This document shows positions 10,601 through 45,803 of a DNA stretch of 64,000 bases, in pieces. The DNA is from an uncultured Candidatus Saccharibacteria bacterium (GTDB lineage Bacteria > Patescibacteriota > Doudnabacteria > UBA920), in the NCBI GenBank assembly GCA_964474825.1, contig CAYYWQ010000001.1, positions 229,609 through 293,608 of the forward strand. The letters run 5' to 3'. The notes under the pieces were generated by a model. It was not told the origin of the DNA, did not search any database, and saw only the letters and a list, made by a program, of their open reading frames with translations. Position numbers and translations under genes: made by a program. Positions within the stretch are counted from its first letter, which is position 1. Every line of letters begins with the position of its first letter.

Positions 10601-11260
10601 GCTGCAATTCTTGAAGCAGACGAAATAGAAAGAGCGACGGGTCCGGAAATAGCAAAAGCACTTAAGGCCTTGGAAGATCCGTACGCTGAAAGTAATCATG
10701 ATTATGCGAATTCAATGCATGCGGAACGTGGTAGGAATTATATGAAGATTAACCTGTCAAAGAAAAAAGGTGGTCAGCAAATGGATATGTTCCATGACTC
10801 TCTTATTAACGTTGGAGTAGAAGATGGAGAAGCTGTTTTAAGTGATGCGGGTACCCAAGCATTAGGTAAAATTGACGAGCAGTCAATCTACGCTTTGCTT
10901 AGGGACAACATGGCTCCCAAAACTAAAGATAAGTTTAAGCTTTATACCAAAGGGATTGCAGTCAATGAGGCAAAAACTATTGCAAAAATTCAAAATCAGT
11001 TAACTAAGGTGGTAAGAGATGAGAACCGCGAAAAAGGAGTATTTATGACAGACCCCGAGATTGCCAAGCAGGTGGAATCAAGAACAAATTTATGGCTTGC
11101 TGCTTCGGCAGGTTTGGCTTCTGGTGAGCAGGCTCAAACTGTCATGCGAGCATTTGAACTTAAAACAGATCCTAATACTAATATTACAGAAACTTTAGCA
11201 GAAAGGGATTTAAGAGTTAGGGCAGAGTTGATTAAAAAGATTAAAGACAGTCAAAAGTAA
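7631..11260 (+). CDS. VirB6/TrbL-like polytopic membrane protein with Gly/Ala-rich extracytoplasmic region and ~500-aa charged C-terminal domain
   Basis: TTG start; signal/TM; 6-7 TM helices between aa ~380-690; organisation resembles VirB6/TrbL giant variants. Confidence 0.5.
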   Translation: MRKLKQKFKTSVFSLVLIIILLSGLGGFFVYPKTAKAAGNVYNFSDIVLTETVEVSNNQNGPWNNVNFVRVGKDSNFYVKVTIQVASLKNTNNQVVTSFDTKNDSVFNPGWYNTNFSISGVGSSFVAKVTQEQAAAIKQKIEAGADPKTVGGIPCFKESMTSGGGAALNGVVIVGASAAVALTGGAALSAGALAVGGSAVGTAAGAAVQNVALFIAINGSTVAGGSTAATLATFRPAAASDYIKCDGPIGGSNQPGPQSPGAVPVGGTLFSSTVTVPATAYANLGLSQQADATKESSTQPVNEFFVVPNVYFSSWLGVRNDFMSTIGAGKSIYVQLYDTQENANKHASEAVPSSVPNNGSNTGSGTNLGDGGSGLLGLINKIIGIIVGILSELAYLIFYTLLAPMIQAMLSIHTYSDTFVGVIYPAWIVVRNVCNIIFIVAIIAIAMGTLFRVESYQYKHLLVQLIIAALLVNFSLVIGQAILGIADTAQNQFLPNNVEVVRSLGKNLMVQYRPDVWNMDFAGHGYFSDTVKQLFFLAMSLGSLAVFAAIAVFLVIRIVALWIFLMISPIAYVAGVLPTTAKYRSEWWSNFIKYAFFTPIMAFMLNIAAYIANMQTNNGVLNYLKVDPSTLGGSNFASFVVQISSNVILLVFLFAATMVAEKMGIYGGDIVSKVGKQGLLAPFAGAKFLTKDVAGGWVKKHYDKKTEGLASGKILPGLFGDKGGQWLSRQLFKVAHPITTVGKIREESKEERELYKARVEAAAVKVARKQFGWRRMTEDPMYLFDEHKGKELYEKEEGQWSPNEQVNVGKINRLAEESKKGDLRARVKLKFALAEAFRNRNLNEVMGGENGLAARNPELFGGPLNYNADNIRFFFQQMTEGGYLDEDFTREFLKDIGRDAYEKGDFNGAELVYSDPKTGHPHMIHMAPRDEEGNSLPVGWNDYVQKREEFIRDADAIGKRNAVTVGKAKAVTKATKNLGPGATPAQIAAEAAILEADEIERATGPEIAKALKALEDPYAESNHDYANSMHAERGRNYMKINLSKKKGGQQMDMFHDSLINVGVEDGEAVLSDAGTQALGKIDEQSIYALLRDNMAPKTKDKFKLYTKGIAVNEAKTIAKIQNQLTKVVRDENREKGVFMTDPEIAKQVESRTNLWLAASAGLASGEQAQTVMRAFELKTDPNTNITETLAERDLRVRAELIKKIKDSQK

Positions 11261-11289
11261 AAATAAAAAGTTTTTAAATTTTAGTTAAA

Positions 11290-12447
11290 ATGACCCTTGA
11301 AGAAGTAAAAGAAATAATAACCAATTCCAAATTTAATCCTGATTTAAAGCAGAGGATGGTTTTATTTTTGCCCAGGCTAGGTAAAAATTCTTTAGAGAGT
11401 TTAGGAAAGGAAGTGAGTAGGGGAGATTCGGTAATAATTGCGGAATATTTAACATCTTTATGGGAAAGCTTTGCGAATTTTTTGGACGGGCTTAAAAATA
11501 AAGACCAGAATGCGTTAAGAGACCTGTCGGAATTCTTTGCAAAAAGACTCTCAAGATTTAATGACGAAGATGAATTTTACACATTAGGCTTTGTGTTGGA
11601 CGTACGCGCTATTGGCCGAAGAGCTCAGACTCAGCTTAGCGCTGAGCAAAATAAGAAGTTGCTTGATTTTGAAATCAGAATGTTTTGGGATTTACCCAAA
11701 GAAGAGGTGCTTTATTTGCTGCGTAATAATATTTTGTATTTACTGGAAAAAATTAATCTTTTAGAGTATACCCGGGCAGCAATTTATAAAAATAATTGGG
11801 ATGAGGGTGATACGTTCAATCAACTATTCCTAGACGCATTGCTACAGAATAAAGAAATGCTAGGGAGCGGGGAATCCAAACCTGTTGGGGTATGGATTAA
11901 GGATTTTTTAAGTTTTTCTGTGCCCACACATTCTCAAGCCAGCACTTTTGGGGTTGCCGAGTTTTTGTTAAGAGGTCCTTCAATCAAAGAGCTTTCTAAA
12001 ATCGAAAAAGAAGGGTTGGCGGAAATTTTAAATTTATTTGTTTGGCTAACAGAGCCAATTATAGTTGTAGACGAAGTTCGCAAATTTATTGAAAAAACCA
12101 AAGAAGCACAGTCTGAGGAAGTGACGCCGAGTAGCTTTCAGAATACCCAAAGGTTTACTTTGCCACCCGAACTTTTAAATGCTAGTAAGCCTATTGTAAA
12201 ACCAGCAGCTCCTCCTTTAGTGCCCGCGCCGGGTAACCAGCCGGTGGCAAAAAAAGTGCAAATGGGGGAGATATCACAGCCGCAACAGATGGTCCAGCCT
12301 GAGAGGCCAACCAAAACAACAGTAAACTATATTACCCAGAAGCCCACGCAAAACCAGCAGCCAACTAAGGCTGAAAAGTATTTACAGCAGGAAATAGACA
12401 GGAAGCTACATAAACTAGAAGAAAAAACAAAGGGGAGTAAGAAGTAG
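11290..12447 (+). CDS. hypothetical protein (385 aa), P/Q-rich C-terminus
   Basis: ORF in tight operon spacing (29 nt gap); no TM; no recognisable family. Confidence 0.5.
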   Translation: MTLEEVKEIITNSKFNPDLKQRMVLFLPRLGKNSLESLGKEVSRGDSVIIAEYLTSLWESFANFLDGLKNKDQNALRDLSEFFAKRLSRFNDEDEFYTLGFVLDVRAIGRRAQTQLSAEQNKKLLDFEIRMFWDLPKEEVLYLLRNNILYLLEKINLLEYTRAAIYKNNWDEGDTFNQLFLDALLQNKEMLGSGESKPVGVWIKDFLSFSVPTHSQASTFGVAEFLLRGPSIKELSKIEKEGLAEILNLFVWLTEPIIVVDEVRKFIEKTKEAQSEEVTPSSFQNTQRFTLPPELLNASKPIVKPAAPPLVPAPGNQPVAKKVQMGEISQPQQMVQPERPTKTTVNYITQKPTQNQQPTKAEKYLQQEIDRKLHKLEEKTKGSKK

Positions 12448-12470
12448 ATAGTAGCTAGAATAAAGAGAAT

Positions 12471-13898
12471 ATGGAAAACGAACATCAACAAAAAATTCAA
12501 AATTTGGTTAAGGTCTCCTCTATATTAGTAGAGGCGGAAAAGAATGAGTGGTTGGAGTTAATGGATTTAATGAATGACCGCCAGCTTTTGGAATTGGAAA
12601 GAATTTTGCAGGATTCGGGCAACAACCAAAAAGCCGTGGTTGCAAAAGAAGGGGAAAAGCCCTCCCAGGTGCAATCTTTGAAAAGCAAGCCCATAGAAAC
12701 CCAACCAGTTAAAAATCCTGCCACCTCCCCTTTTAGCCATATTTTAAATTTCCCCAAAGCTCCGGGCGCGCAGCCTCTTCCTCCAATAAAGCCTTTGCCA
12801 ATAGTCCAGGCTAAGGTGGAGAGCAGGATTGTTGAGCCCAAAAAACAGTCGCCATTTTTGGCAAAACTAAAAAATATTTTTACGGAAAAAGAGTTGCCGG
12901 CTCCGCACCAGGGCGCTTTGTCAGACCATAGTGTGGTTAAGGATTTACCGGTTAAAGCTAAGCCTGTTCCGCCAAAGCCGCAGCCACATCATTTAAAACT
13001 GAAAGAACAGCTAAAGAAGCCGGTGGAGGAAGCTCCAAAGCCAAAATTGCCTGAGCCTGTCAAAAAGCCGGTAGAAGAACCTGTTTTGCCAAAAGCACCC
13101 CAGCAGCCCGAGCCAAAAAAACCGGAAAATGTAACCATAAATGTTTTTCTTAATGACCAAACAAAACAAGGGCAGGGTTTGGGCGTTGCCCAGGCCCAAA
13201 GCGCGCTAGAGCAAGTGTCTGCCGCCGGTCTGCCTACGGGCGGGAAGCCGGATGAGCTTAGCCAGCAAATTGCCGAGTCTATGTCCGCGGCGGTTCCACC
13301 CCAGGCAAAACAAAGTGTTCCTTCAAAGTCTACTCCGGCTCGTCCGTCCGATCCTGAGGTTGCCAATAATCACGCTAAAAGCGGTTGGGGACAAACAGAA
13401 GAAGGTCTAATAAATTCAAACCGCAATAAAGAAAATGTTAAAGCGGCTGTGGCTGCCGCTGTTAGCACAGTAGCTTATGGCTTAAATTTTCCTGAAGGTT
13501 CCAGTGCCGAAGCTTTAAAAAGCAGGTTAACAGGTACGAGTCAGCAATCTATTGGCGGCAAGGCTGCCCCGGCCCCTGCAGGGACAAAAATTGTGCTCCA
13601 AGAAAAGCCCGGAGACAATATAAAGCTTGAGACTTTGGCAGATATAGATGTTTTAAAGCCTGACGACCTCAAACAACACGCTACCGGCACAATGTTCCGC
13701 AAGCTCCAAAAGCTTGTGTCGGTGAACGGCCTGCACGAAGTGGTGCGCCATATGGAAATTAGTCCTTTGTACAAAGCCTATATAGAAACCGGGGTCGCGT
13801 TATTAAAAGAAGATGCCAACCGTAAGTCCGCGCCTCTTACCAGCAGCGATTTTGAACGCTTTGTAGACCTTCTTATTATGATGAGATCTAAATCTTAA
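12471..13898 (+). CDS. hypothetical protein with proline-rich KKPVEE(A/P)... repeats
   Basis: internal repeats KKPVEEAPKPKLPEP / KKPVEEPVLPKAP; 23 nt gap from upstream gene. Confidence 0.5.
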   Translation: MENEHQQKIQNLVKVSSILVEAEKNEWLELMDLMNDRQLLELERILQDSGNNQKAVVAKEGEKPSQVQSLKSKPIETQPVKNPATSPFSHILNFPKAPGAQPLPPIKPLPIVQAKVESRIVEPKKQSPFLAKLKNIFTEKELPAPHQGALSDHSVVKDLPVKAKPVPPKPQPHHLKLKEQLKKPVEEAPKPKLPEPVKKPVEEPVLPKAPQQPEPKKPENVTINVFLNDQTKQGQGLGVAQAQSALEQVSAAGLPTGGKPDELSQQIAESMSAAVPPQAKQSVPSKSTPARPSDPEVANNHAKSGWGQTEEGLINSNRNKENVKAAVAAAVSTVAYGLNFPEGSSAEALKSRLTGTSQQSIGGKAAPAPAGTKIVLQEKPGDNIKLETLADIDVLKPDDLKQHATGTMFRKLQKLVSVNGLHEVVRHMEISPLYKAYIETGVALLKEDANRKSAPLTSSDFERFVDLLIMMRSKS

Positions 13899-13926
13899 GG
13901 TTTCTATGGTATAATTAATCTATTAT

Positions 13927-14367
13927 ATGCAATTTTCCGTACCACAATTTACTGAGGTAGAAGATAAAATAATTGGCCCGCTGACTATTAAGCAGTTTGG
14001 TATTATTTTTGGCGGCGGAGTTTTCGTGTTTATTGCTTTCACTCTTACAAAGAGCATGGCAGTCTTAATTATTTCCGGTTTGTTTTTTGGCTTGCCTACC
14101 TTAGGCTTAGCTTTTGGCAAACTAAACGGCAGGCCGATTTATAACATGCTAGGTAATTTGTTGGCATTTATTACCAGTCCTAAGGTTTTAATTTTCCATA
14201 AACAGGGAGTGCTAGCATCAGACAATAAGCAGAAAGACGAGGCGCTGGGAGCAAAAACAGCTGCCGATGTTAACATGAGCACTGCCGCCACCTCGCGTCA
14301 AAGACTTACCGAAGTCAATAAACTATTAGAAAAACAGGCGGCTGAGGAGAGGGAATTATTGAAATGA
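13927..14367 (+). CDS. VirB3/PrgI-like small two-TM membrane protein
   Basis: 146 aa, two adjacent TM helices (GIIFGGGVFVFIAFTL / AVLIISGLFFGLPTLGLAF); position just upstream of VirB4. Confidence 0.4.
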   Translation: MQFSVPQFTEVEDKIIGPLTIKQFGIIFGGGVFVFIAFTLTKSMAVLIISGLFFGLPTLGLAFGKLNGRPIYNMLGNLLAFITSPKVLIFHKQGVLASDNKQKDEALGAKTAADVNMSTAATSRQRLTEVNKLLEKQAAEERELLK

Positions 14368-14452
14368 GCATTTAGTAGTTAGTATATAGCAGTTAGGTTT
14401 GTTAATCCCTACCTGCTAAATGCTATTTGCTACAAGCTAAGAGCTAATACCT

Positions 14453-15136
14453 ATGAAATTAGAAATGCAGGAAAAATCCACAACAACGGCAAAGTCCACA
14501 CAAAGCTTTTTGCCTATTAGTGAAATAAAAAATGACGTGGTCGTTTTAAACAACGGCACTTTGCGCGCGATTTTGGCGGTATCCAGCACTAATTTTGACT
14601 TAAAAAGTCAGGATGAACAAAATGCCATTATTTATAATTTCCAGCGTTTTTTGAATTCTTTGGAATTTTCAGTGCAAATTTTAATGCAAAGCCGGAAAAT
14701 GGAAATTGGCACTTATTTGGAAAAGCTAAAAGGGATTGCCGAAAAACAGACAAATGAGCTGCTTAGGGTCCAGACTTTGGAATATGTGGAATTTATTAGC
14801 CGGCTTATAGAAAACGCCAGTATTATGAACAAGAATTTTTACGTTATTGTCCCGTTAGACGAAAGTATAACGCCCCAGGCGGCCGGATTTTTTAGCCGGA
14901 TTTTTGGGGGAGGTAAAACCAAGGAATTAAAGCAAAAAGTTGAAAATTTTGAAAAACTTAAAGAGAAGCTCGATAACCGGATTTCTGCGGTTAGTTCCAA
15001 TCTTTCCAGTATTGGCCTGCAATCTTCGCCGCTTAAAACAGAGGCTATTATTCAGCTCTATTACAACTCCTACAATTTTGACGCCGCTCCAACACTAGAC
15101 CCGAATAAATTAAAAGAAATGAAAATAGCGCAGTAA
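14453..15136 (+). CDS. VirB4/TrbE N-terminal domain-like protein (possible detached N-terminal part of VirB4)
   Basis: LNNGTLRAILAVSSTNFDLKSQDEQNAIIYNFQRFLNSLEFSVQI matches the CagE/TrbE/VirB4 N-terminal pattern; in frame with the next ORF, separated only by TAA TAA TTT. Confidence 0.45.
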   Translation: MKLEMQEKSTTTAKSTQSFLPISEIKNDVVVLNNGTLRAILAVSSTNFDLKSQDEQNAIIYNFQRFLNSLEFSVQILMQSRKMEIGTYLEKLKGIAEKQTNELLRVQTLEYVEFISRLIENASIMNKNFYVIVPLDESITPQAAGFFSRIFGGGKTKELKQKVENFEKLKEKLDNRISAVSSNLSSIGLQSSPLKTEAIIQLYYNSYNFDAAPTLDPNKLKEMKIAQ

Positions 15137-15142
15137 TAATTT

Positions 15143-16987
15143 ATGTCAATTTTTAAAATAAAAACCGAAAAAGAACTGGAAGAAAAAAAATCCATGCTCC
15201 AGGAGGCGGAGCAGGAGCGTGATTTAAGCAAGAAAATTACCGATGTTGAAAAGACTTACCGTGAGGGTCTTACAACCTTGAAAGATTTAATTGCCCCGGC
15301 GAGTCTGAAGTTTGAAAGCTCTTATTTTGAATTAAACGGCAAGTTTGCACGAAGCTTCTTTGTTTTGGCATACCCCAGGTTCCTTTCCAGTAACTGGCTG
15401 TCTTTTATTATACAGGCCGAAGGCGCTCTGGATTTGTCCATGTATATTTATCCAATAGACTCCGAAACAATTTTAAAAAAGTTAAAATCTAAAGTCGGGG
15501 AGCTGGGCAGCCAAATGTCCATTAACCAGGAAAAAGGTGGCGTACGTGACCCAATGCTGGAAACGGCCTATAAAGACGTGGAAGGTTTACGGGACCAGCT
15601 TATGCAAGGTACTGAGCGTTATTTCCGTTTTGCCCTGTATTTTACTATTTACGCGGACGACTTAAAGGAATTAGACAAGAACTCTTCCACTTTGGAATCC
15701 GCTTTGGGCGCTAAACTTATTGTTACCAAGCGGGCAATAATGCAGACCCAGCAGGGTTTTAATTCCACTTTGCCTTTTGGTAAAGACGAGCTGGATGTTG
15801 GTAACAACATGAACACCAGTCCGCTGTCTACATGTTTTCCTTTTGTTTCCTCTGACTTAACGGGTAACGATGGTATTTTATATGGCATTAACCGCCACAA
15901 CAACAGTTTAATTCTGTTTGACAGGTTTGCCATGGAAAATGCCAACTCCGTAATTTTTGCCAAATCCGGCGCCGGGAAATCTTACGCGGTTAAACTGGAA
16001 GTACTGCGGCATTTAATGATAGGCACGGACGTGGTAATTATAGACCCGGAAAACGAATACAAACATTTGGCCGATGCCGTGGGTGGCACGTACTTGAGCG
16101 TTTCGTTAAATTCCAATTCCCGTATTAACCCGTTCGATTTGCCCGTTGCAATAGAAGGGGAAGACAATGCTGATGTTTTGCGCTCGTCGGTAGTTAACTT
16201 GCTTGGTTTGTTCAGTTTAATGCTCGGCAAGTTAAACCCAACGGAAGAAGCTTTAATGGACAAGGCCATTTGGCAGACTTATGCCAAAAAAGACATTACC
16301 GCGCAATCGGATTTTAAAACCGTAGAATATCCGACAATGAACGATTTAATAGAAATCCTGCATGGTATGGTGGGCGCGGAAAGTTTGGCTCAAAGGTTGA
16401 CTAAATATACCGAAGGAACTTTTGCCGGGTTATTTAACCAGCCAACCAATGTGGTTTTAAATAATCAGTTGGTGGTTTTTTCCATCCGAGATTTGGAAGA
16501 TGAATTGCGGCCCATTGCAATGTATATTATTTTAAACCATATTTGGAACATTGTGCGCAGTGAGCTAAAAAAACGCATTTTGGTGGTTGACGAAGCCTGG
16601 ATTATGATGCAGCACGAAGACAGCGCGCGGTTTTTATTTGGTATTGCCAAACGCGGGCGCAAGTATTATTTAGGTCTTACCACGGTAACCCAGGACGTTG
16701 CCGACTTTATGGCCAGTCCATACGGCAAGCCTATTGTAACCAACTCTTCCATCCAGCTGTTGTTAAAACAATCGCCGGCGGCTATAAATATTATTGCCGA
16801 CACCTTTTTCTTAACAGAAGGTGAAAAATATTTGCTTTTGGAAAGCGAAGTTGGGGAAGGTATTTTTTTTGCCGGGCTTAAGCACGCGGCAATTAAAATA
16901 TATGCATCTTATGTGGAAGACCAAATTATTACCACCGACCCAAAACAGCTTTTGGAAATTCAGGAAAGCCAGGAAAAATTAAGCTAA
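15143..16987 (+). CDS. VirB4/TrbE/CagE-family T4SS ATPase
   Basis: Walker A FAKSGAGKSYAV, Walker B ILVVDEAWIMM, conserved RKYYLGLTTVTQDVADF block. Confidence 0.85.
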   Translation: MSIFKIKTEKELEEKKSMLQEAEQERDLSKKITDVEKTYREGLTTLKDLIAPASLKFESSYFELNGKFARSFFVLAYPRFLSSNWLSFIIQAEGALDLSMYIYPIDSETILKKLKSKVGELGSQMSINQEKGGVRDPMLETAYKDVEGLRDQLMQGTERYFRFALYFTIYADDLKELDKNSSTLESALGAKLIVTKRAIMQTQQGFNSTLPFGKDELDVGNNMNTSPLSTCFPFVSSDLTGNDGILYGINRHNNSLILFDRFAMENANSVIFAKSGAGKSYAVKLEVLRHLMIGTDVVIIDPENEYKHLADAVGGTYLSVSLNSNSRINPFDLPVAIEGEDNADVLRSSVVNLLGLFSLMLGKLNPTEEALMDKAIWQTYAKKDITAQSDFKTVEYPTMNDLIEILHGMVGAESLAQRLTKYTEGTFAGLFNQPTNVVLNNQLVVFSIRDLEDELRPIAMYIILNHIWNIVRSELKKRILVVDEAWIMMQHEDSARFLFGIAKRGRKYYLGLTTVTQDVADFMASPYGKPIVTNSSIQLLLKQSPAAINIIADTFFLTEGEKYLLLESEVGEGIFFAGLKHAAIKIYASYVEDQIITTDPKQLLEIQESQEKLS

Positions 16988-17070
16988 CGATTAACGATTG
17001 ACAATTAACAATTAACTTCTGATTTTGGGGTTAAACGTTAATCGTGAATTGTTAATTGTTTTTTTATTTT
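16988..17070 (+). terminator. hairpin/heptad-repeat structure with T-run after VirB4
   Basis: AACGATT/AACAATT heptad repeats and inverted GTTAATC/GTTAATT copies followed by ttttttatttt. Confidence 0.4.
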
Positions 17071-19641
17071 ATGGCGGACGATAATAAAAATTCGACGGCA
17101 GCTTCCGCTGATCCCACGGCGAGTACGGGAAGCAGTAGTGATACCAGGCCGAGGGGTGTAACTAACGGCATAAATTTGCCCGCCAGGTTTGATGTTAGGG
17201 GCCGTAACGTATCCATAAATACAGCCCACATTAACCGTGTTTTTGTTAATGTAAGACAAAGCTCTCTTTCCATAAGAACCAATGACCAAGTTTCTTTTGA
17301 AGGAATTGGTTTGCGGCCTTATACACACATAGTTTTCGCAACAAAATCCGAAGGGCAGCCCCTTATTCCCCCTGTTCAAAAAAGCTCCGAGAGCAGCGAT
17401 GTTCAGCTGATTTTTGAAATTCCGAAAATAAATTACGATGGTCTAATAGAAATAGAAATTATCAGCAATTCTGATTCGGATTACGATAAGGCAATTAACA
17501 GCCCTTCTTTTGCTTATTTTAATAACGAGGAAGAGGATGAAAAAAATAAATCTAAAACTTCAAAGGAGACTGAAGAGGAAAGAATAAGAAGCGAAAATGA
17601 AAAGTCCCATCTTATTTCCGATTTGGTTAATGCGCCTTTGGGAGTTATTGGGGCGGCGTTTGGGGGCGCAAAAGGAACAGGCTCAAGCGCTCAGACGGGA
17701 AATAAAAAACCAGCGACTGCATCCGCTGTAACGCCCGTTAAACAGGAGGCTAATGAAGATTTTGATACGCAAGAAGAGTCCCAGGTACAAACATCCAGTG
17801 TTGTTTTAACGGAAAATGAACAACAGGCCGCGGAACTGGTTGGTGAATATATAGACAAAAATCCTGAAGTAATTAGTGACGTTAGAATTCGCAATGAAAT
17901 TTTAGGGACTTTGGGGAGCGGCCAGCAAGGCCAGGTGGATTTGTCACAACTTAGCGGAGAGGCGCGGCAAACTCTGCAGACAACAGTCGCGCAGTCTGTA
18001 AAATCTCAAACCGGCCAGGGAGCACAAAGGCTTCAGGAGGCTTATGGGCAACTGGAACAAAAAATCCAAGTTCAAGGCGGAGGCGGCGGAGGTTCTGTTA
18101 CTGCCAGCACGCAGGTGCAAGCGCAAGGCGGAGGCAGCGGGCAGGTAAGTGGAGAAGTCAAAGCTGAATCAAAGTCGGCCGCAGAAATAAAAGCTAAAAC
18201 ATCGACAGAGGCTAAAGTTTCTGGGCAAATGCAAGGACAGGCGCAAGCCTCTTTCGGTGGCGTTGCCCCTTCAGCTGCCACGGCTGAGGTTTCCGCCCAA
18301 GGGACGCAGCCGGCAAAAACCAGCCCTGTCCAGCGGCAAAATATGGAAGTGGTGGGGGAGTATTTAGACAAAAATCCAAATAAAATTTCAAGTGCAGATT
18401 CAGGGACAAGGAACAGGATTATACAGGCCTTGGCTTCGGGAAATACCGACAGCTTAAATAAAAACGACCAAGAAGTTTTAAAGAAAACTTTAAATGCGCT
18501 GGGCCAAGACAGTTTGGCTCCGGCTGCTGTTAGATTGGCCGCAGATAATTTATCTGAAGGCGAAAAGCAGCCCTCTACCGAGCCTGTAAAAACCGCTACG
18601 GGTTCACAGCAGGAAAATCTTGCCGGAGGCGCTGGTAAGCCTTTGGATTCTGCCGGTCCAAAAAATGAAGCGGAAGAAGTGGGGCGGCCCCCTAAGGAAG
18701 CTTTAGAAATATTAAACAGACTAAAAAAAGAAGAAAAACCTTTGCCTCCGGGCGTGGTTGCTCCTCCAAAGCGTGGGGCTTCCGCAATTTCCGACCGGGC
18801 AGGGTTGGGAGGGCCATTAAAAAATGGCAGTGATATTAATGGACAGACGGAAGGGGTGTCGCCAGCTAAAAATTTGCCTGCTGTTACGGAGCCTAGAACA
18901 GGAGCCGGGGAAGGCGGGGAGCCTACAAGCAATGTTAATTCCACTCAGCTGCCTAAGTCTACAGAGCAAAATCCACCAACCGAACGGCCTAATGAGGAGG
19001 CTCCGGAAGGCGGTGCGCCGGACTCAGGAATGCCTCCCGTAAACCCGAAGGCCAGCCCAACTGCGCCGGTTTCTGATCCCACCAAAACAGATGAGCCGGA
19101 ATCTGATTCTTCCACACCCGCGCTCCCTGCCGCGGCCGCAACCGGGGCTGCAAATACCGCATTAGGCAATAAAATCTATAAAGAGGTAGGTGAAGTTGCT
19201 TCCAGTCAAATTTGGTATTTTGGTTTTTCAAGCTCCTGTCTTACGCTTTTTTCCGGCTTTGATTTTATGCTTGGCGGCATTGTAATGGCGGCGTATTGGA
19301 TTTTTGGGCACAGGAAAAATAAAGAACTGTTTCCATTAAAACGGTGGCAAAAAGCCGTAACCATTTTAGCCTTTATTTTACCAATTGTGTATTTGGTTGT
19401 TACAATAGAATTAATTATTTACGTTGGCTGCAATAGCCCCGTAGAATATAATGCAATCAGTAAATACAAACTTACGTATATTGGTTCTGTGTATCCGGAT
19501 GTTTGCGAAAGTATGGGGGCGGCTACGAATACAGGGGTCGGCGCCGGTGGGGGTACTCCAACTTTAAATCCCTCGGCCCCTCCAGCCGCTGCTCCGGCTG
19601 TCCCTCCTGCAGCCCTACAACCGCGTGGCTCCAGCCAGTAA
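17071..19641 (+). CDS. hypothetical large Q/G/A-rich protein with C-terminal TM segments and Pro/Ala tail
   Basis: ATG at 17071 (ORF track uses TTG 17056); internal repeat VGEYIDKNPEVIS / VGEYLDKNPNKIS; two hydrophobic helices near C-terminus. Confidence 0.5.
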   Translation: MADDNKNSTAASADPTASTGSSSDTRPRGVTNGINLPARFDVRGRNVSINTAHINRVFVNVRQSSLSIRTNDQVSFEGIGLRPYTHIVFATKSEGQPLIPPVQKSSESSDVQLIFEIPKINYDGLIEIEIISNSDSDYDKAINSPSFAYFNNEEEDEKNKSKTSKETEEERIRSENEKSHLISDLVNAPLGVIGAAFGGAKGTGSSAQTGNKKPATASAVTPVKQEANEDFDTQEESQVQTSSVVLTENEQQAAELVGEYIDKNPEVISDVRIRNEILGTLGSGQQGQVDLSQLSGEARQTLQTTVAQSVKSQTGQGAQRLQEAYGQLEQKIQVQGGGGGGSVTASTQVQAQGGGSGQVSGEVKAESKSAAEIKAKTSTEAKVSGQMQGQAQASFGGVAPSAATAEVSAQGTQPAKTSPVQRQNMEVVGEYLDKNPNKISSADSGTRNRIIQALASGNTDSLNKNDQEVLKKTLNALGQDSLAPAAVRLAADNLSEGEKQPSTEPVKTATGSQQENLAGGAGKPLDSAGPKNEAEEVGRPPKEALEILNRLKKEEKPLPPGVVAPPKRGASAISDRAGLGGPLKNGSDINGQTEGVSPAKNLPAVTEPRTGAGEGGEPTSNVNSTQLPKSTEQNPPTERPNEEAPEGGAPDSGMPPVNPKASPTAPVSDPTKTDEPESDSSTPALPAAAATGAANTALGNKIYKEVGEVASSQIWYFGFSSSCLTLFSGFDFMLGGIVMAAYWIFGHRKNKELFPLKRWQKAVTILAFILPIVYLVVTIELIIYVGCNSPVEYNAISKYKLTYIGSVYPDVCESMGAATNTGVGAGGGTPTLNPSAPPAAAPAVPPAALQPRGSSQ

Positions 19642-28090: not shown

Positions 28091-28182
28091 TGGCGGAGAG
28101 GGGGGGATTCGAACCCCCGAAAGGTTTTGACACCTTTACCGGTTTAGCAAACCAGCGCACTAGGCCTCTATGCGACCTCTCC
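28091..28182 (-). tRNA. tRNA-Ser (anticodon GCT), long variable arm, CCA encoded
   Basis: GGAGAGGTCGCATAGAGGCCTAGTGCG-CTGGT-TTGCTAA-ACCGG...extra arm...GGGGGTTCGAATCCCCCCCTCTCCGCCA. Confidence 0.85.
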
Positions 28183-28381: not shown

Positions 28382-29623
28382 CTAGACCGAGTAGGTCCGG
28401 CCGCGGTGCTGTCCGAGAAGGATTTGCACCAGCCGGTGGGCGATCAGTTCGTGGAGCGTGAGCAGTTCACGGTTGGCCGCGGTAACGGCTTCGGCATCGT
28501 GCGGATCGGTAACGCCGGCGCCGCCGGCCTTCAGGGCGTCGGTGGCTTCCTTGATGATCGGGTCAGAGATGACTTCGCCTGCCATCTCCCATAGCGTGAT
28601 GAAGCGGTCCACGGCGCTCGGAAAGCTGACCTTGAAGACGCCGTAGTTGCTGGTGGTGCGTGGCGGTTTGAAATCGAGGTTGAACGGGCCGTTGTAGCCG
28701 TGGCTGCGCAGCAGCACCAGCACGTTCAGCCAGTCGAGCGGATTCACCAGCCCTACCGCGATATCCACATCGTGCTTCAGGCGGTAGCCGTCGTTGATGT
28801 CGAAGTGCCACAGCTTGCCGCACAGGAGTGCGCGAGCCAGCGATGCCCGGGGCGCGGCGCCCCACATCAACTCATGCAGGTACTCGGGGTTGAGCCCTAC
28901 CATCTCCGGATGCGTCAGCAGGCCTGAGGAAATGAAGGCCAGCATCGCGTCGCTGGTCGGAAGCAGGATCTCGGCCTGCGGTTCGAACGGCTTGGCCTCC
29001 ATACAGTGCTTCAGGGTGGGGTTGCCCTTTTCCTTTGCAATCTGGATATCGGCCTCGCAGGCGTGGTTCAGGGCGTCGGCGTACCAGCGAAGGGTCTGTG
29101 TCTCGTCGATCGCGCCCTGGACGTAGTAGCCGAGGGAACCGGGCCAGTAGACGGCGAACTGCGCGCCGAGCTCGTGCCCGATGTGAACCGTATTGGCCAG
29201 CCGGAACTTAGCGTACTCCCTTACATCTGGAGCTTCCGCCGCCGGACTGCCGGCGAACACCGCGTGATAGAACGTGTCCGTGGTGACCATCGAGCACTTG
29301 ACGTCGTGCTTCTTGAGGCATGTCTTGATGTGCTCAATCGCCATCCACTGCCACTCTTTTCCCAGGTGCTCGGTGGGGATAACGTCCGTGTCATGAGTGG
29401 TCCAGTAGCCGATTCCGATTTCGCCGAAATTGCGGATAGCCTCCTCAAATCCCACGGGTCCGCGGGTGGGGGCGTGGAATAGGGCGTCGCCTTCGTAAGC
29501 AGCGGCCCATTGGGGCCCGGAGATAAAGTATTTCCGGCGCGTTTCGGGGGAATAACCACCCCCGCACGCTTCCATGAGCCGATTAATCAGGGATTGCTGT
29601 TCGTTCACAGGGACTGGTTGCAT
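28382..29623 (-). CDS. xylA: xylose isomerase, class I (actinobacterial/Thermus type), in ~62% GC island
   Basis: long collinear similarity to class-I XylA: FHDTDVIP, AIEPKP-like EAKPFEPQ, ILLPT, GLNPE, HFDINDG, exact DFKPPRT; codon GC3 very high against AT-rich flanks. Confidence 0.85.
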   Translation of the reverse strand: MQPVPVNEQQSLINRLMEACGGGYSPETRRKYFISGPQWAAAYEGDALFHAPTRGPVGFEEAIRNFGEIGIGYWTTHDTDVIPTEHLGKEWQWMAIEHIKTCLKKHDVKCSMVTTDTFYHAVFAGSPAAEAPDVREYAKFRLANTVHIGHELGAQFAVYWPGSLGYYVQGAIDETQTLRWYADALNHACEADIQIAKEKGNPTLKHCMEAKPFEPQAEILLPTSDAMLAFISSGLLTHPEMVGLNPEYLHELMWGAAPRASLARALLCGKLWHFDINDGYRLKHDVDIAVGLVNPLDWLNVLVLLRSHGYNGPFNLDFKPPRTTSNYGVFKVSFPSAVDRFITLWEMAGEVISDPIIKEATDALKAGGAGVTDPHDAEAVTAANRELLTLHELIAHRLVQILLGQHRGRTYSV

Positions 29624-41798: not shown

Positions 41799-42176
41799 AT
41801 GACTTATTTTACAAAATATTCTTATCTTTCAGCCCGACTTTATTCGACGTTTGAAGAATTATACAAATATAATCCCAATAGCGGCGGCGATTTTATTGGT
41901 TATTCTCAAGCAAGGGGAAAATTTATACTTTATTACGGATCCTTATTTATATTTATAATTCTTTTGCTCAGCAAAATTATTTGGGATAGCAGAATAAATC
42001 ACGGCTTGTTTATTGTGTTTTCAGTTTTAACTTTTGGAACTATAATAGGTTTTATTTCTGATTTAGTGAGAATCCGTATATTTAAAAAAAGGAGCCTCCG
42101 CGAAGGAAATTTAGTGTATGAGTCAGGTTTGTTAATTTTGGGAAATAAAAAGTATTCATTGGAACATTTAGAATAA
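41799..42176 (+). CDS. hypothetical small membrane protein inserted between gatA and gatB
   Basis: two TM helices; 125 aa. Confidence 0.45.
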   Translation: MTYFTKYSYLSARLYSTFEELYKYNPNSGGDFIGYSQARGKFILYYGSLFIFIILLLSKIIWDSRINHGLFIVFSVLTFGTIIGFISDLVRIRIFKKRSLREGNLVYESGLLILGNKKYSLEHLE

Positions 42177-42178
42177 AA

Positions 42179-43672
42179 ATGAAAGAATTTCCATCTTCAA
42201 CTGAATATCAGCCGGTAATTGGGTTTGAAATCCATATTCAGCTTGCTACTAAGAGCAAGATGTTTAGTGCTGCGCCAAATAATCCGGACCAGGCAGTTCC
42301 TAATACTAATATAGACGAGGTGGTAACTGCCCAGCCCGGAACTTTGCCAGTGGCTAATAAAGAGGCTATAAAATTAGCAGCAATGGTTGGCTTGGCTTTA
42401 AATTGCACTATAGACGAGTGGAGCAAGTTTGACCGTAAGCATTATTTTTATCCGGACTTGCCCAAGGGCTATCAAATTTCCCAGTATGATCAGCCAATTG
42501 CCAAGAATGGTTATTTGGACGTGGTAGTCGCCGGAAAAACTAGGCGCATAAATATTACGCGTGCTCATTTGGAGGAAGACGCAGGTAAAAACATTCATCC
42601 CGAAGGTTTGCCCTATTCTTTGGTGGACTATAACAGGGCCGGCTGTGCGCTCTTGGAAATTGTTTCTGAGCCCGACATAGAAAGTGGCGCCGAAGGCAGG
42701 GCATATTTGGAAGAAATTAGGAATATTGTGCGCTATTTGGGAGTGTCTTCGGCGGATATGGAAAAAGGTTTAATGCGCTGCGAGCCAAGTATTAGCGTAA
42801 GAAAACCCGGGGAGACAACTTTGCCAAAATATAAAGTGGAAGTTAAAAATATTAACAGCATTAGTTTTGCCGAGGCTGCTATAAATTACGAAATCGCCCG
42901 CCAAACAGAAATTTTAAAAGAAGGCGGCACGCCCAAACAGGTTACTATGGGTTGGAACGAAAAGCAGGGGATTACTGTAGAACAAAGAAGTAAAGAAGAG
43001 GCGAACGACTATCGCTACTTTCCGGAACCGGACTTACCTGTGTTACAATTTACTCAGGAATATTTAAACGACCTACGGGCGCATATGCCAGAACTTCCCG
43101 AGCAAAAAAGAAAGCGGTTTTTGGAAGAATATAATTTACCAGCCGCAGACGTAGCGAATTTAATAAACTGGAAAGACTTGGCCAACTATTTTGAAGATGT
43201 GGTAAGTGAAATAGATGCCTGGATGGAAGAAGAGAAAGGCCTAGACCGCAACGCTTTAATTAAACAAGCAACCAACTGGTGCTTGCAAGATTTTTCCGCT
43301 GCGTTAAATGCAAAGTTAATGAAGCCGCAAGACTCTACAGTAACGCCCGAAAATTTTGCGGAATTAATTAAATTAATGGCCCAAGGAAAAATTTCCGGCA
43401 GCGCGGCTAAAACTGTATTTAAAGTTATGTTTGAAAAAGGCGGCGACCCTTCTAATATAGTGGAAGATATGGGTCTTCACCAGGTAAGCGACGAATCTGC
43501 AATAGCCGAAGCCTTAGACAAAGTTATATCCGCCAACGCAAAAGCAGTAACAGACTACAAATCCGGCGAACAAAAAAGTTTTGGTTTTCTGGTTGGTCAA
43601 ACCATGAAAGAGTTAAAAGGCAAAGGAAACCCACAAGTTATAAACGAGTTATTGAAAAAGAAATTATTGTAG
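42179..43672 (+). CDS. gatB: Asp/Glu-tRNA amidotransferase subunit B
   Basis: YQPVIGFEIHIQL N-terminus, C-terminal GatB/YqeY domain GFLVGQTMKELKGKGNP. Confidence 0.9.
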   Translation: MKEFPSSTEYQPVIGFEIHIQLATKSKMFSAAPNNPDQAVPNTNIDEVVTAQPGTLPVANKEAIKLAAMVGLALNCTIDEWSKFDRKHYFYPDLPKGYQISQYDQPIAKNGYLDVVVAGKTRRINITRAHLEEDAGKNIHPEGLPYSLVDYNRAGCALLEIVSEPDIESGAEGRAYLEEIRNIVRYLGVSSADMEKGLMRCEPSISVRKPGETTLPKYKVEVKNINSISFAEAAINYEIARQTEILKEGGTPKQVTMGWNEKQGITVEQRSKEEANDYRYFPEPDLPVLQFTQEYLNDLRAHMPELPEQKRKRFLEEYNLPAADVANLINWKDLANYFEDVVSEIDAWMEEEKGLDRNALIKQATNWCLQDFSAALNAKLMKPQDSTVTPENFAELIKLMAQGKISGSAAKTVFKVMFEKGGDPSNIVEDMGLHQVSDESAIAEALDKVISANAKAVTDYKSGEQKSFGFLVGQTMKELKGKGNPQVINELLKKKLL

Positions 43673-43757
43673 TATTTTTATCAAATTTAAAGGCGGGGGG
43701 AACTTTGACATTCCGTACCCGCCTTTGAGCTTGTTGAGCATTTTTTTGCCGACTGCT

Positions 43758-43781
43758 AGCGCCTCTGTGGGCGCTTTTTTG
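43758..43781 (+). terminator. rho-independent terminator after gatB
   Basis: agcgcc-tctgtgg-gcgct hairpin followed by tttttt. Confidence 0.5.
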
Positions 43782-43788
43782 ACAGTGG

Positions 43789-44397
43789 TTACGCCTTACG
43801 CCGCCGCAGCCACAGCAAGCAGCTCGCCCCGCTGCCCATCAGAAGGAGCGAGGACGGCTCGGGCGTTAGCGTTGTTGCCCTTTGCTGGCCTATATAGGGC
43901 AACACATCACCGTTGACGTCGGTGATATTAAGGACGCTAAAAAAAAGCTCGTCCCCAACGTCGTGGTGGGAGGTGCCGGTCCAAAATAGAAAATCTCCCA
44001 AGTTCGGTACCCAGGGGGTAACGATCACCGGCCCAAAGGTTGGACCGTTAAAACCGCCTCCGGAGCTGGTAAGCTCCGCCCAGGGGCCCGGTATTGGAGA
44101 CGTCATTTCAAAATCTGTCTCATACCAGAGCCCGCCCGGCCTGACACCGAACGAACCCACGCCGTAGCCGGTTGGTGTCGGGCCCGTGCCGTCCCAGCCT
44201 TCTTCGATGTAGACCGATCCGAAGATCAGCCAGTCAATCGAAGCCCCGTCCGGCATGCCGTTATTGGTGAGTTTAAAGCTGTAAGAGAACAGTCCTCCGG
44301 CTTGGGGTGTTACGGAGTACTCCAAGGTTAGGGGTTCCGCCCCGGCAAACATCGCCATGGCGAAAATCAGAAAAGCAAGCGCGAGAATGCGCGACAT
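43789..44397 (-). CDS. PEP-CTERM sorting-domain secreted protein (high-GC island)
   Basis: signal peptide; C-terminal TPEP + hydrophobic SSLLLMGSGASCLLWL + RRRKA = PEP-CTERM tripartite motif. Confidence 0.6.
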   Translation of the reverse strand: MSRILALAFLIFAMAMFAGAEPLTLEYSVTPQAGGLFSYSFKLTNNGMPDGASIDWLIFGSVYIEEGWDGTGPTPTGYGVGSFGVRPGGLWYETDFEMTSPIPGPWAELTSSGGGFNGPTFGPVIVTPWVPNLGDFLFWTGTSHHDVGDELFFSVLNITDVNGDVLPYIGQQRATTLTPEPSSLLLMGSGASCLLWLRRRKA

Positions 44398-44549
44398 GAT
44401 TTAGGTCTCCTTGTGGTTTTCGATTGTTGATCAGAAGGTTTTTTGTACACTCGAGACGTACAAAAATTACTACTGCTGATCTCAGTAGATAACCGCATAG
44501 TATATCAAAAAACCCTTGAAATGTCAAGGGTTTTTGTAAATACAATAAG

Positions 44550-45461
44550 CTATTTTAAGTATTTTGAAACAACGTGTGCTGCTTTTTTAGGTTCTTTTAA
44601 CCAAATAATTTCTTTGTTCCTTTTCCACCAAGTCATTTGTCTTTTACTATAGTGTTTTATTGCGTATGAAAGTTGCACGAACATTTCATCTTCCGTAAGT
44701 TTTTTTTGTAAATACTGGGAGACAAATTTGTATTCCAAACCAAAAGATTCCAGTTTTTTCCAGGACAAACCAACTTTATGGAGTTTTTGAACTTCTTTAA
44801 TCATTCCGGCTTTGAGGCGCTGTTTTAACCGCACGTCTATTTTTTTGTATAAAGTTTTTTGGTCAACATTAATTCCCAGCCACAGAGCCTTGCCGTTAAA
44901 TGATTTTAAAATTGGAATCGGTTTTCCAGTTGCTAGAATAATTTCCAAAGCACGAATAAGACGGCGTTTGTTGTGGCGGTCAATGTTTTTGGCGCGGGTG
45001 GGGTCTAGTTTTTGAAGGCGCTTAAATAAAATATATGCGTTTTGTTTTTCCAGTTTTAGTCTAAGCCTAAGATTAGGTTTGATATTTGGAATTTCTTGAT
45101 TATAAACTACTGCGTCTATCCATTGTGCTGTTCCGCCGCACAAAATGGGAAGTTTACCGCGCTTGGTAACATCAGCAATAACTTTTTTGGCCTCTTTCTG
45201 AAACTCTGCAACTGAATATTGTTTTTTGGGATTTATAAAATCTATAAGGTGGTGGGGGATTTCTTTATAAAAATATTGTAATCCCTCGCGGCCACGATTT
45301 ATTACAATTTCCCACTTTCCTTCTACTTTGCCTGTTCCCAAATCCATTCCTTTATAAATTTGCCGGCTGTCAGCGGAAATTATTTCACCTTTAAAGCGCT
45401 TTGCGAGCTGGACTGCCAGTTCAGATTTTCCGGAGCTTGTCGACCCTACTATTGCAATCAT
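44550..45461 (-). CDS. miaA: tRNA dimethylallyltransferase MiaA
   Basis: P-loop IAIVGSTSSGKSELAVQLA, ISADSRQIYKGMDLGTGK; internal Met chosen as start. Confidence 0.85.
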   Translation of the reverse strand: MIAIVGSTSSGKSELAVQLAKRFKGEIISADSRQIYKGMDLGTGKVEGKWEIVINRGREGLQYFYKEIPHHLIDFINPKKQYSVAEFQKEAKKVIADVTKRGKLPILCGGTAQWIDAVVYNQEIPNIKPNLRLRLKLEKQNAYILFKRLQKLDPTRAKNIDRHNKRRLIRALEIILATGKPIPILKSFNGKALWLGINVDQKTLYKKIDVRLKQRLKAGMIKEVQKLHKVGLSWKKLESFGLEYKFVSQYLQKKLTEDEMFVQLSYAIKHYSKRQMTWWKRNKEIIWLKEPKKAAHVVSKYLK

Positions 45462-45503
45462 TTTGTTAAAAATGTATAATTTGTCCATTAAAGGGAGGAA
45501 TTA

Positions 45504-45803
45504 GTGTTAGAAGAAATGTTAAAAAGGAACGGTGGAGTCTTGGAGTTTGACTCCGCACGGTTTTCCTTCTCGGATTCGAAGAAGGACGACTCAGAGTTTT
45601 TTGCCCAGCTTGCTGAGTTAATTGAGCGGGGGAATGCAATTGCGGTAACACTCGTTCGCTACCAGGTCATGCTTCCGGCCTGTCAGATAATTTGTTTGGT
45701 TCTGCGTTCCCACGAACTGTTCGACCAGGTAATGGCGGAGTCCGAGGCTGGAAAGCTATGGTTTGACATACTGAGGAATCGCAAGGGCAGGCCCTGCGAA
45801 TAA
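45504..45803 (+). CDS. hypothetical small protein in ~50% GC patch with own terminator
   Basis: ORF followed by hairpin + T-run at ~45866-45897. Confidence 0.25.
   Translation: MLEEMLKRNGGVLEFDSARFSFSDSKKDDSEFFAQLAELIERGNAIAVTLVRYQVMLPACQIICLVLRSHELFDQVMAESEAGKLWFDILRNRKGRPCE

Follow-up and report, generated by a model that had tools for sequence, protein, structure and literature searches.

In the 64-kb window analysed here (the whole stretch of DNA under study), a gene for a 202-amino-acid (aa) protein with a PEP-CTERM tail lies between miaA and gatB, and our analyses showed it to be an accessory gene, intact and acquired by horizontal transfer, in a Doudnabacteria-like genome of the candidate phyla radiation (CPR). 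For the product of this gene, we lean towards a reading in which a gene acquired into a variable CPR slot encodes a Sec-exported protein whose tail serves as a plain membrane anchor and not as the substrate of an exosortase.

The foreign origin of the gene was evident from its composition, with a GC content of 0.58 and a GC content at third codon positions (GC3) of 0.68, compared with 0.43 and 0.43 for the other coding sequences of the window pooled. Only two of the 56 open reading frames (ORFs) of the window were GC3 outliers, the PEP-CTERM gene and a 413-aa ORF at 28382..29623, and by synonymous-codon likelihood the PEP-CTERM gene was the second most atypical of 47 ORFs, at about 3 standard deviations (sd) from the median. 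Simulated re-encoding of this protein with the codon usage of the host (2000 simulations) gave a GC content of 0.50 +/- 0.012 and a GC3 of 0.475 +/- 0.032 (maximum 0.579), placing the observed GC3 6.5 sd above the host-codon-usage expectation. As the observed GC3 lay above all 2000 simulations, the excess is far beyond chance and does not come from amino-acid composition alone; from the re-encoding, about half of the GC excess is therefore due to the Gly/Pro-rich composition of the protein and half to foreign codon choice. An earlier note on this DNA had described an insert of about 60% GC, and these values bear it out. The promoter and 5' untranslated region of the gene (44410-44549) were AT-rich and host-like.

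An NCBI contig of 1,211,450 bp encodes the exact 202-aa protein, as do the Logan assemblies of two single runs, SRR14271372 and SRR14271365. Both Logan contigs carry gatB, the PEP-CTERM gene and miaA, and over 1.2 kb that takes in both junctions they match the window at 100% identity. As these two independent per-run assemblies match exactly across the junctions, the gene is not the assembly artefact that the earlier note had allowed for. A chimeric or contaminated contig, in which a high-GC fragment had been mis-joined into CPR sequence, would account for the abrupt GC shift, the sole point in its favour, but is extremely improbable given the two spanning assemblies, the AT-rich 5' untranslated region and promoter that join the coding sequence without a break, and the same arrangement with other PEP-CTERM proteins in unrelated studies (contigs L086 from ENA, L089 from GenBank, and L007 and L019 from GTDB metagenome-assembled genomes, MAGs).

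The CPR-like host proposed by the earlier note was supported by the flanking genes. GatB of the window was 75-76% identical in amino acids to that of Candidatus Doudnabacteria and Patescibacteria MAGs, the closest among GTDB species representatives, and the order secA, gatA, gatB, opposite-strand miaA, cupredoxin-like gene, holB was conserved in Doudnabacteria relatives. Nothing diderm-specific, and no exopolysaccharide or outer-membrane biogenesis genes, were found among the window ORFs scanned, which, together with the 1.21-Mb genome and the presence of PrgI and TrbL-like genes, fits a CPR organism.

Gene signals, protein and family

The features of the insert and its flanks are as follows (coordinates in the window).

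42179..43672, plus strand: gatB, conserved left flank of the slot (Pfam GatB_N and GatB_Yqey on the identical gene in L001)
43682..43775, no strand: pair of GC-rich hairpins separating the stop codons of gatB and of the PEP-CTERM gene (inverted repeat I4 and a terminator-like site)
about 43690..44410, no strand: GC-rich compositional island of about 720 bp, coding sequence and 3' untranslated region (60-bp GC profile)
43789..44397, minus strand: coding sequence of the PEP-CTERM family protein, 202 aa, stop codon included (ORF list; phmmer family)
43795..43866, minus strand: PEP-CTERM sorting domain, residues 178-201, with PEP motif, transmembrane helix and RRRK cluster (TIGR02595, PF07589)
43882..44337, minus strand: beta-sandwich ectodomain, residues 21-172 (AlphaFold2 model)
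44338..44397, minus strand: signal peptide, residues 1-20, MSRILALAFLIFAMAMFAGA, cleavage motif AGA/EP (read from sequence; modelled helix)
44407..44411, minus strand: Shine-Dalgarno AGGAG, 9 nt 5' of the ATG (read from sequence)
44497..44546, minus strand: hairpin just past the miaA stop, likely the miaA terminator (inverted repeat I1)
44499..44527, minus strand: candidate sigma-70-type promoter, TTGACA-17-TATACT with TG extension, 11/12 consensus positions (consensus match)
44550..45488, minus strand: miaA (IPPT), conserved right flank of the slot (Pfam IPPT on the identical gene in L002; synteny)

The 202-aa ORF reported earlier was present at these coordinates with its Shine-Dalgarno sequence, and its placement just after terminator-like sites at the end of gatB also held. 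The 116 bp between the gatB stop (43672) and the stop of the PEP-CTERM gene are filled by the two GC-rich hairpins, one formed by inverted repeat I4 (arms 43682-43697 and 43718-43733) and one at a plus-strand terminator-like site (43758-43775), and this region is likely to be a bidirectional terminator. The description of the gene as antisense to the surrounding operon stood for one flank and not the other: it converges with the plus-strand genes of gatCAB, gatB being its immediate neighbour, but its neighbour directly upstream, miaA, shares its strand, and with a candidate promoter of its own as well the gene is not antisense on both sides. This promoter came from a consensus scan that returned 2 sites against 0.8 expected from shuffles. 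Its -35 hexamer falls inside the miaA 3' hairpin (inverted repeat I1, with 23-nt arms, 83% complementary, and a 4-nt loop), forming a compact terminator/promoter overlap.

Both ends of the protein agreed with the earlier description of a signal peptide and a canonical PEP-TM-RRRK (PEP, transmembrane, RRRK) C-terminus. The N-terminus, MSRILALAFLIFAMAMFAGA followed by EP, has by eye the n/h/c layout of a Sec signal peptide, and an equivalent hydrophobic N-terminus was present in every member of the family alignment. The C-terminus, TPEPSSLLLMGSGASCLLWLRRRKA, comprises a Pro-Glu-Pro motif, a hydrophobic transmembrane helix and a basic cluster, and passed the cut-offs of both TIGR02595 (23.9 bits against 16, residues 178-201 of 202) and PF07589 (25.2 bits against 20.7, residues 178-200). 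An AlphaFold2 model built on a 37-sequence alignment (A4) had a mean predicted local distance difference test score (pLDDT) of 79.9 and a predicted template modelling score (pTM) of 0.72, and consisted of a signal helix (2-16), an all-beta sandwich (22-172) and a transmembrane helix (181-200), with a low-confidence, disordered loop (70-91) specific to the closest subgroup. As Foldseek against the PDB returned nothing at E<1e-3, with weak likeness to sandwiches of carbohydrate-binding-module (CBM)-like and immunoglobulin (Ig)-like type, no function can be assigned from structure; from the fold class we would guess that the modelled ectodomain binds something, perhaps carbohydrate, a host surface or matrix material.

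The earlier note had taken the gene for an orphan acquisition, which was overturned by an exhaustive phmmer search of 1.84 billion cluster representatives. This search recovered 143 relatives at E<=1e-3 and 27 at E<=1e-10, the best of which (P0002) was 46% identical (E=3e-44, residues 5-202 against 3-195 of 195), and a second close relative (P0003) was 47% identical over its full length. A word-indexed protein search returned the query itself only, and by that route the 202-aa ORF would have seemed an ORFan. Family members are about 180-200 aa long and share a layout in which a domain of about 150 aa lies between a signal peptide and a PEP-CTERM tail, with the motifs L.L.Y.V, GG.Y.Y.F.L, GW.W.IFG, PW....S.GG.NGP, W.P..G..L.W.G.S and LLFS. 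The window protein keeps the near-invariant columns of the family alignment (A2), GW.W.IFG, PW....S.GG.NGP and W.P..G..L.W.G.S among them, and these homology searches show it to belong, over its full length, to an unnamed and widespread family of proteins of about 190 aa.

No named NCBIfam family covers the ectodomain, every match being limited to the tail. Membership in NF038129 was rejected on a score of 23.3 bits against a 65-bit cut-off, with the tail alone aligning (profile positions 168-194). Metagenomes were scanned for further members with a 6-sequence subgroup alignment. One member (P0167) came from a Planctomycetota MAG, and another (P0015), which groups with the window protein, had a gene GC of 0.60 and a GC3 of 0.70 on a contig (L134) of GC 0.59, where its neighbours were prepilin-type N_methyl proteins and a rhamnosidase; these two mark candidate donor lineages.

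The miaA/gatB slot in Doudnabacteria relatives

Nor was the insert a one-off. The gap between convergent gatB and miaA varied from 9 bp to 4501 bp in Doudnabacteria-like relatives and held unrelated small ORFs, and at least five other Doudnabacteria-like contigs carried GC-rich PEP-CTERM genes in this slot, some belonging to the family and others related through the tail only; such a gene was borne by a minority only of the Doudnabacteria relatives. A 58-kb ENA/NCBI contig (L086) had the same synteny, with gatB 68-84% identical; between its miaA and gatB lies the gene for P0065, a family member that shares 29% identity with the protein of the window. In L089 (GCA_009712145.1) a family member (P0005) directly followed a miaA 63% identical to that of the window. 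L087, which carries P0003, was assigned to the slot by flank homology to a Doudnabacteria MAG contig (L007), its downstream non-coding flank and the slot flank of that contig sharing 76% identity over 149 nt. Intact family members with signal peptides were present in L086, L087, L088 and L089.

Contigs L007 and L019 both encoded PEP-CTERM proteins in the same position and orientation in the slot. The tail of the L007 protein scored 33.4 bits with PF07589; the protein was considered as a remote family member and rejected, as 28 tail columns alone align and the ectodomain is unrelated. L019 held an 82-aa remnant of which the tail alone aligned significantly with the family. The two loci (L007 3854..4501 and L019 1756..2010, both minus strand) share a homologous 5' region (ttttatggcttaa..cagagaATGGCA), both lack a signal peptide, and L007 has an in-frame stop eight codons past the ATG of this region. 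From these features the two ORFs are probably decaying copies.

Across the six-frame ORFs of 87 sources searched with a tail-specific hidden Markov model (HMM), PEP-CTERM tails of CPR loci occurred in the slot only (in about 1.3 Mb of gatB-centred loci), and the window contained one such tail. In every CPR or low-GC context examined, the GC content of the PEP-CTERM gene was above that of its flanks:

window: gene GC 0.58, flank GC 0.43
L086: gene GC 0.545, flank GC 0.467
L007: gene GC 0.60, flank GC 0.42
L019: gene GC 0.62, flank GC 0.39
L087: gene GC 0.58, flank GC 0.38-0.43
L088: gene GC 0.57, flank GC 0.36
L089: gene GC 0.55, flank GC 0.44
L083: gene GC 0.61, flank GC 0.28-0.44

For family members, the difference between gene and surroundings was +0.07 to +0.20 in CPR/low-GC contexts and -0.08 to +0.05 in non-CPR contigs (other metagenome and genome contigs bearing family members), where gene GC follows that of the surroundings and hosts range from 0.37 to 0.70 GC, mostly 0.6-0.7. 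As the GC content of family genes is foreign in CPR and native-like in these ordinary hosts, the simplest reading of the composition suggests repeated import into the slot from high-GC diderm donors. A rough neighbour-joining (NJ) tree, which was star-like, placed the CPR copies in at least three places.

We also considered whether a single ancestral slot gene had been passed on vertically. The neighbouring housekeeping proteins among these CPR genomes are 60-84% identical and their divergence is saturated; because they are no more similar than this, a slot gene of vertical descent would be expected to have shed its foreign GC3 long ago. Vertical descent is thus unlikely, the GC3 being unameliorated and the CPR copies scattered in the weak tree.

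With regard to the route of entry, no integrase, transposase or tRNA target flanked the single-gene insert, no target-site duplication was found, and the sole flanking repeat was a weak 17-nt direct repeat of 76% identity. Plasmid, phage and IMG/VR collections yielded no relatives of the insert. A mobile element or integrative genomic island was rejected on these grounds, the flanking repeats being unconvincing and relatives absent from those collections. We infer that the DNA probably entered the slot by homologous recombination through its conserved flanks.

Other slot contents differed between relatives:

L006 6483-7066: Pro-rich ORF of 56-63 aa in the miaA/gatB slot, GC 0.57-0.58
L009 3917-4236: Pro-rich ORF of 56-63 aa in the miaA/gatB slot, GC 0.57-0.58
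L014 9519-9995, L015 7274-7684, L020 4592-5014 and L022 9600-10061: ORFs of 136-158 aa in the miaA/gatB slot

No Pfam family was found among those of these lineage-specific small ORFs that were tested. The 4.5-kb slot of L024 contained a pectate-lyase-like protein and a weak DUF2809 match. On L086, a GC-rich 223-aa ORF (9144..9815) with neither a signal peptide nor a Pfam family lies beside the PEP-CTERM gene in the slot, and gatB (10641..12150) is split into two ORFs, which may reflect a frameshift, a long-read assembly error or a pseudogene.

Proposed membrane anchoring and the exosortase question

PEP-CTERM proteins were described as confined to bacteria with an outer membrane and exopolysaccharide genes, usually in many copies per genome (median 8), and an EpsH homologue of about 8 transmembrane (TM) segments was present in every PEP-CTERM genome, including one with a single PEP-CTERM protein (PMC1569441). 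The window protein resembles the substrates of this exosortase (EpsH/XrtA) system in its signal peptide, its domain of an unnamed family and its C-terminal PEP-TM-Arg/Lys tail. It departs from the system in that its host is Doudnabacteria-like CPR and not a diderm with exopolysaccharide loci, and in that the 64-kb window holds a single copy and no EpsH-like protein, EpsH being what defines the system. The statement of the earlier note that no exosortase lies nearby was upheld, as no exosortase Pfam family was found among the multi-TM ORFs of the window, where the only four ORFs with at least four predicted TM segments match TrbL/VirB6-like, peptidase M48, peptidase M50 and MreD families. Nor was an exosortase found in the annotated neighbourhoods of L001, L002, L086 and L088, among the multi-TM ORFs of gatB-centred CPR loci (UPF0259/GPDPase_memb, EamA and M50 instead), in the L024 slot or the other relatives' slots examined, or beside family members in non-CPR loci (MFS, EamA, FtsW and similar instead). 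In the literature searched no joint mention of exosortase and Patescibacteria was found; exosortase and candidate phyla radiation were co-mentioned in two versions of one study, once in each and in passing, and one paper with a CPR context mentions PEP-CTERM, apparently with reference to its Zoogloea host.

The PEP-CTERM families NF038129, THxN (NF038125), XDP1 (NF041927) and flocculation protein PepA (NF033554) in NCBIfam have the same layout at about 190-260 aa, but the tail alone aligns with the window protein, whose ectodomain is a separate unnamed family. LPXTG/sortase proteins and plain C-terminal-anchor proteins of monoderms work in the way proposed for the window protein, with Sec export, anchoring at the cytoplasmic membrane by a C-terminal helix with a basic cluster, and the domain outside; LPXTG and PEP-CTERM tails are physically similar (PMC1569441), but the window protein has no LPXTG motif. 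Small islets at core-gene recombination hotspots, and host-to-symbiont transfer in CPR, are likewise foreign single-gene inserts with varying slot contents; the present case differs in having no integrase, flanking tRNA or target-site duplication, and in the recurrence of the PEP-CTERM type of cargo. The protein, as a PEP-CTERM protein, and the insert, as a small islet gained by horizontal transfer, are each of a known kind, and their recurrence in CPR is a modest oddity. For the single gene of the window the default reading is ordinary horizontal acquisition.

In the anchor reading that we favour, the gene would have come from a high-GC diderm donor of Planctomycetota-Verrucomicrobiota-Chlamydiota (PVC) type, probably by recombination into the slot, and its own near-consensus promoter, lodged in the miaA terminator, would drive its transcription. 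The protein would be exported by Sec (SecA, a housekeeping gene product, is encoded 4 kb from the PEP-CTERM gene) and its signal peptide cleaved after AGA by signal peptidase. The beta-sandwich would then be displayed outside, on the cell surface, with the C-terminal helix spanning the single cytoplasmic membrane and the RRRK cluster inside the cell, the PEP-TM-RRRK tail acting as a stop-transfer anchor. CPR cells are generally held to be without an outer membrane, and for this reason the tail is most likely a plain anchor of this type.

Several points weigh against this reading. The donor lineage is read from composition and from the rough, star-like NJ tree, the absence of exosortase covers 64 kb of about 1.21 Mb, and the promoter of the PEP-CTERM gene is known only from its match to the consensus. 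The PEP motif is intact in 8/8 CPR-context tails, which could reflect selection by a sorting enzyme and not recent arrival, and the L019 (82-aa remnant) and L007 (no signal peptide, upstream in-frame stop) copies look decayed, so that slot genes may be transient passengers and not functional genes.

Two alternatives take up the last two of these points. An exosortase-family enzyme encoded elsewhere in this genome and in the other Doudnabacteria with slot PEP-CTERM genes, which would cleave and transfer the protein as part of a functional PEP-CTERM/exosortase system in CPR, would explain why these genes recur in several Doudnabacteria-like genomes with every PEP motif intact and why the window gene is intact with good expression signals, and it would agree with the EpsH homologue present in every PEP-CTERM genome of the founding survey (PMC1569441). 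We consider it unlikely, as no exosortase-like multi-TM protein was found in the window, beside the L086 and L088 genes or in relatives' slots, the window has one tail and the CPR loci none outside the slot in about 1.3 Mb against the median of 8 (PMC1569441), and the literature, as described above, offers CPR and exosortase together only in passing. The genes also look recently imported, which accounts for intact PEP motifs without selection. Recent import is equally what would be expected of a neutral passenger, foreign DNA recombined into a permissive slot, unused and heading to decay, and the unameliorated composition, the presence of such a gene in a minority only of Doudnabacteria relatives, the decayed L019 and L007 copies and the turnover of slot contents between related genomes are all in keeping with this. 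The window copy, however, is full-length and keeps all family motifs, its signal peptide and its tail, and its Shine-Dalgarno sequence and 11/12 promoter lie in host-like AT-rich DNA, which suggests that the host supplies the expression signals. Intact, signal-peptide-bearing members also persist in L086, L087, L088 and L089, and CPR genomes are small, so that useless DNA is expected to be lost fast; an idle passenger therefore seems improbable as well.

If slot PEP-CTERM genes that recur in CPR are intact and equipped with promoters, then either the tail serves as a plain anchor in a single membrane or some CPR have an exosortase-type enzyme that has gone unnoticed, and the foreign composition makes the slot genes possible markers of the DNA-exchange partners of CPR, which are hard to learn for uncultured episymbionts. 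A broader proposal, which we hold as tentative and on balance doubtful, is that a Doudnabacteria hotspot 3' of miaA repeatedly captures PEP-CTERM surface-protein genes from high-GC diderms, possibly hosts or neighbours, for display on the single membrane. Were this true, the tail would be in use without exosortase or with a sorting enzyme not yet recognised in CPR, and the cargo of the slot would point, at the genome level, to the organism with which an uncultured episymbiont is partnered.

Other features of the window

The 413-aa ORF at 28382..29623 (minus strand), the other GC3 outlier, had a GC content of 0.62 and a GC3 of 0.79, and its codon usage was more atypical than that of any other ORF compared in the window. 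It matches Pfam AP_endonuc_2 (xylose-isomerase-like TIM barrel) and lies about 200 bp from tRNA-Ser(gct) (28091..28182), and by its composition it looks like a second, independent horizontally acquired island.

Nearer the slot, a 125-aa ORF (41799..42176, plus strand) between gatA and gatB had a GC content of 0.30 and two predicted TM segments, and matched no Pfam family. The position immediately 5' of gatB is taken in other CPR loci by a protein of 250-300 aa, for which 6-8 TM segments are predicted and which in some cases matches UPF0259 / GPDPase_memb. On the other side, a 99-aa ORF (45504..45803, plus strand) occupies a patch of raised GC (0.50-0.52) between miaA and the cupredoxin-like gene; it is a gene call in Logan contig L002, with no Pfam family and no homologue in Doudnabacteria relatives.

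A cluster resembling a type IV secretion system (T4SS) lies at 7631..19641 (plus strand). Large ORFs with no Pfam family surround its TrbL-like and PrgI genes, T4SS-like genes of these two kinds being typical of CPR. The product of the TrbL-like gene is 1209 aa long, has 10 predicted TM segments and matches TrbL/VirB6 weakly (19.3 bits, below cut-off), and the PrgI-family protein (13927..14367) scored 36.6 bits.

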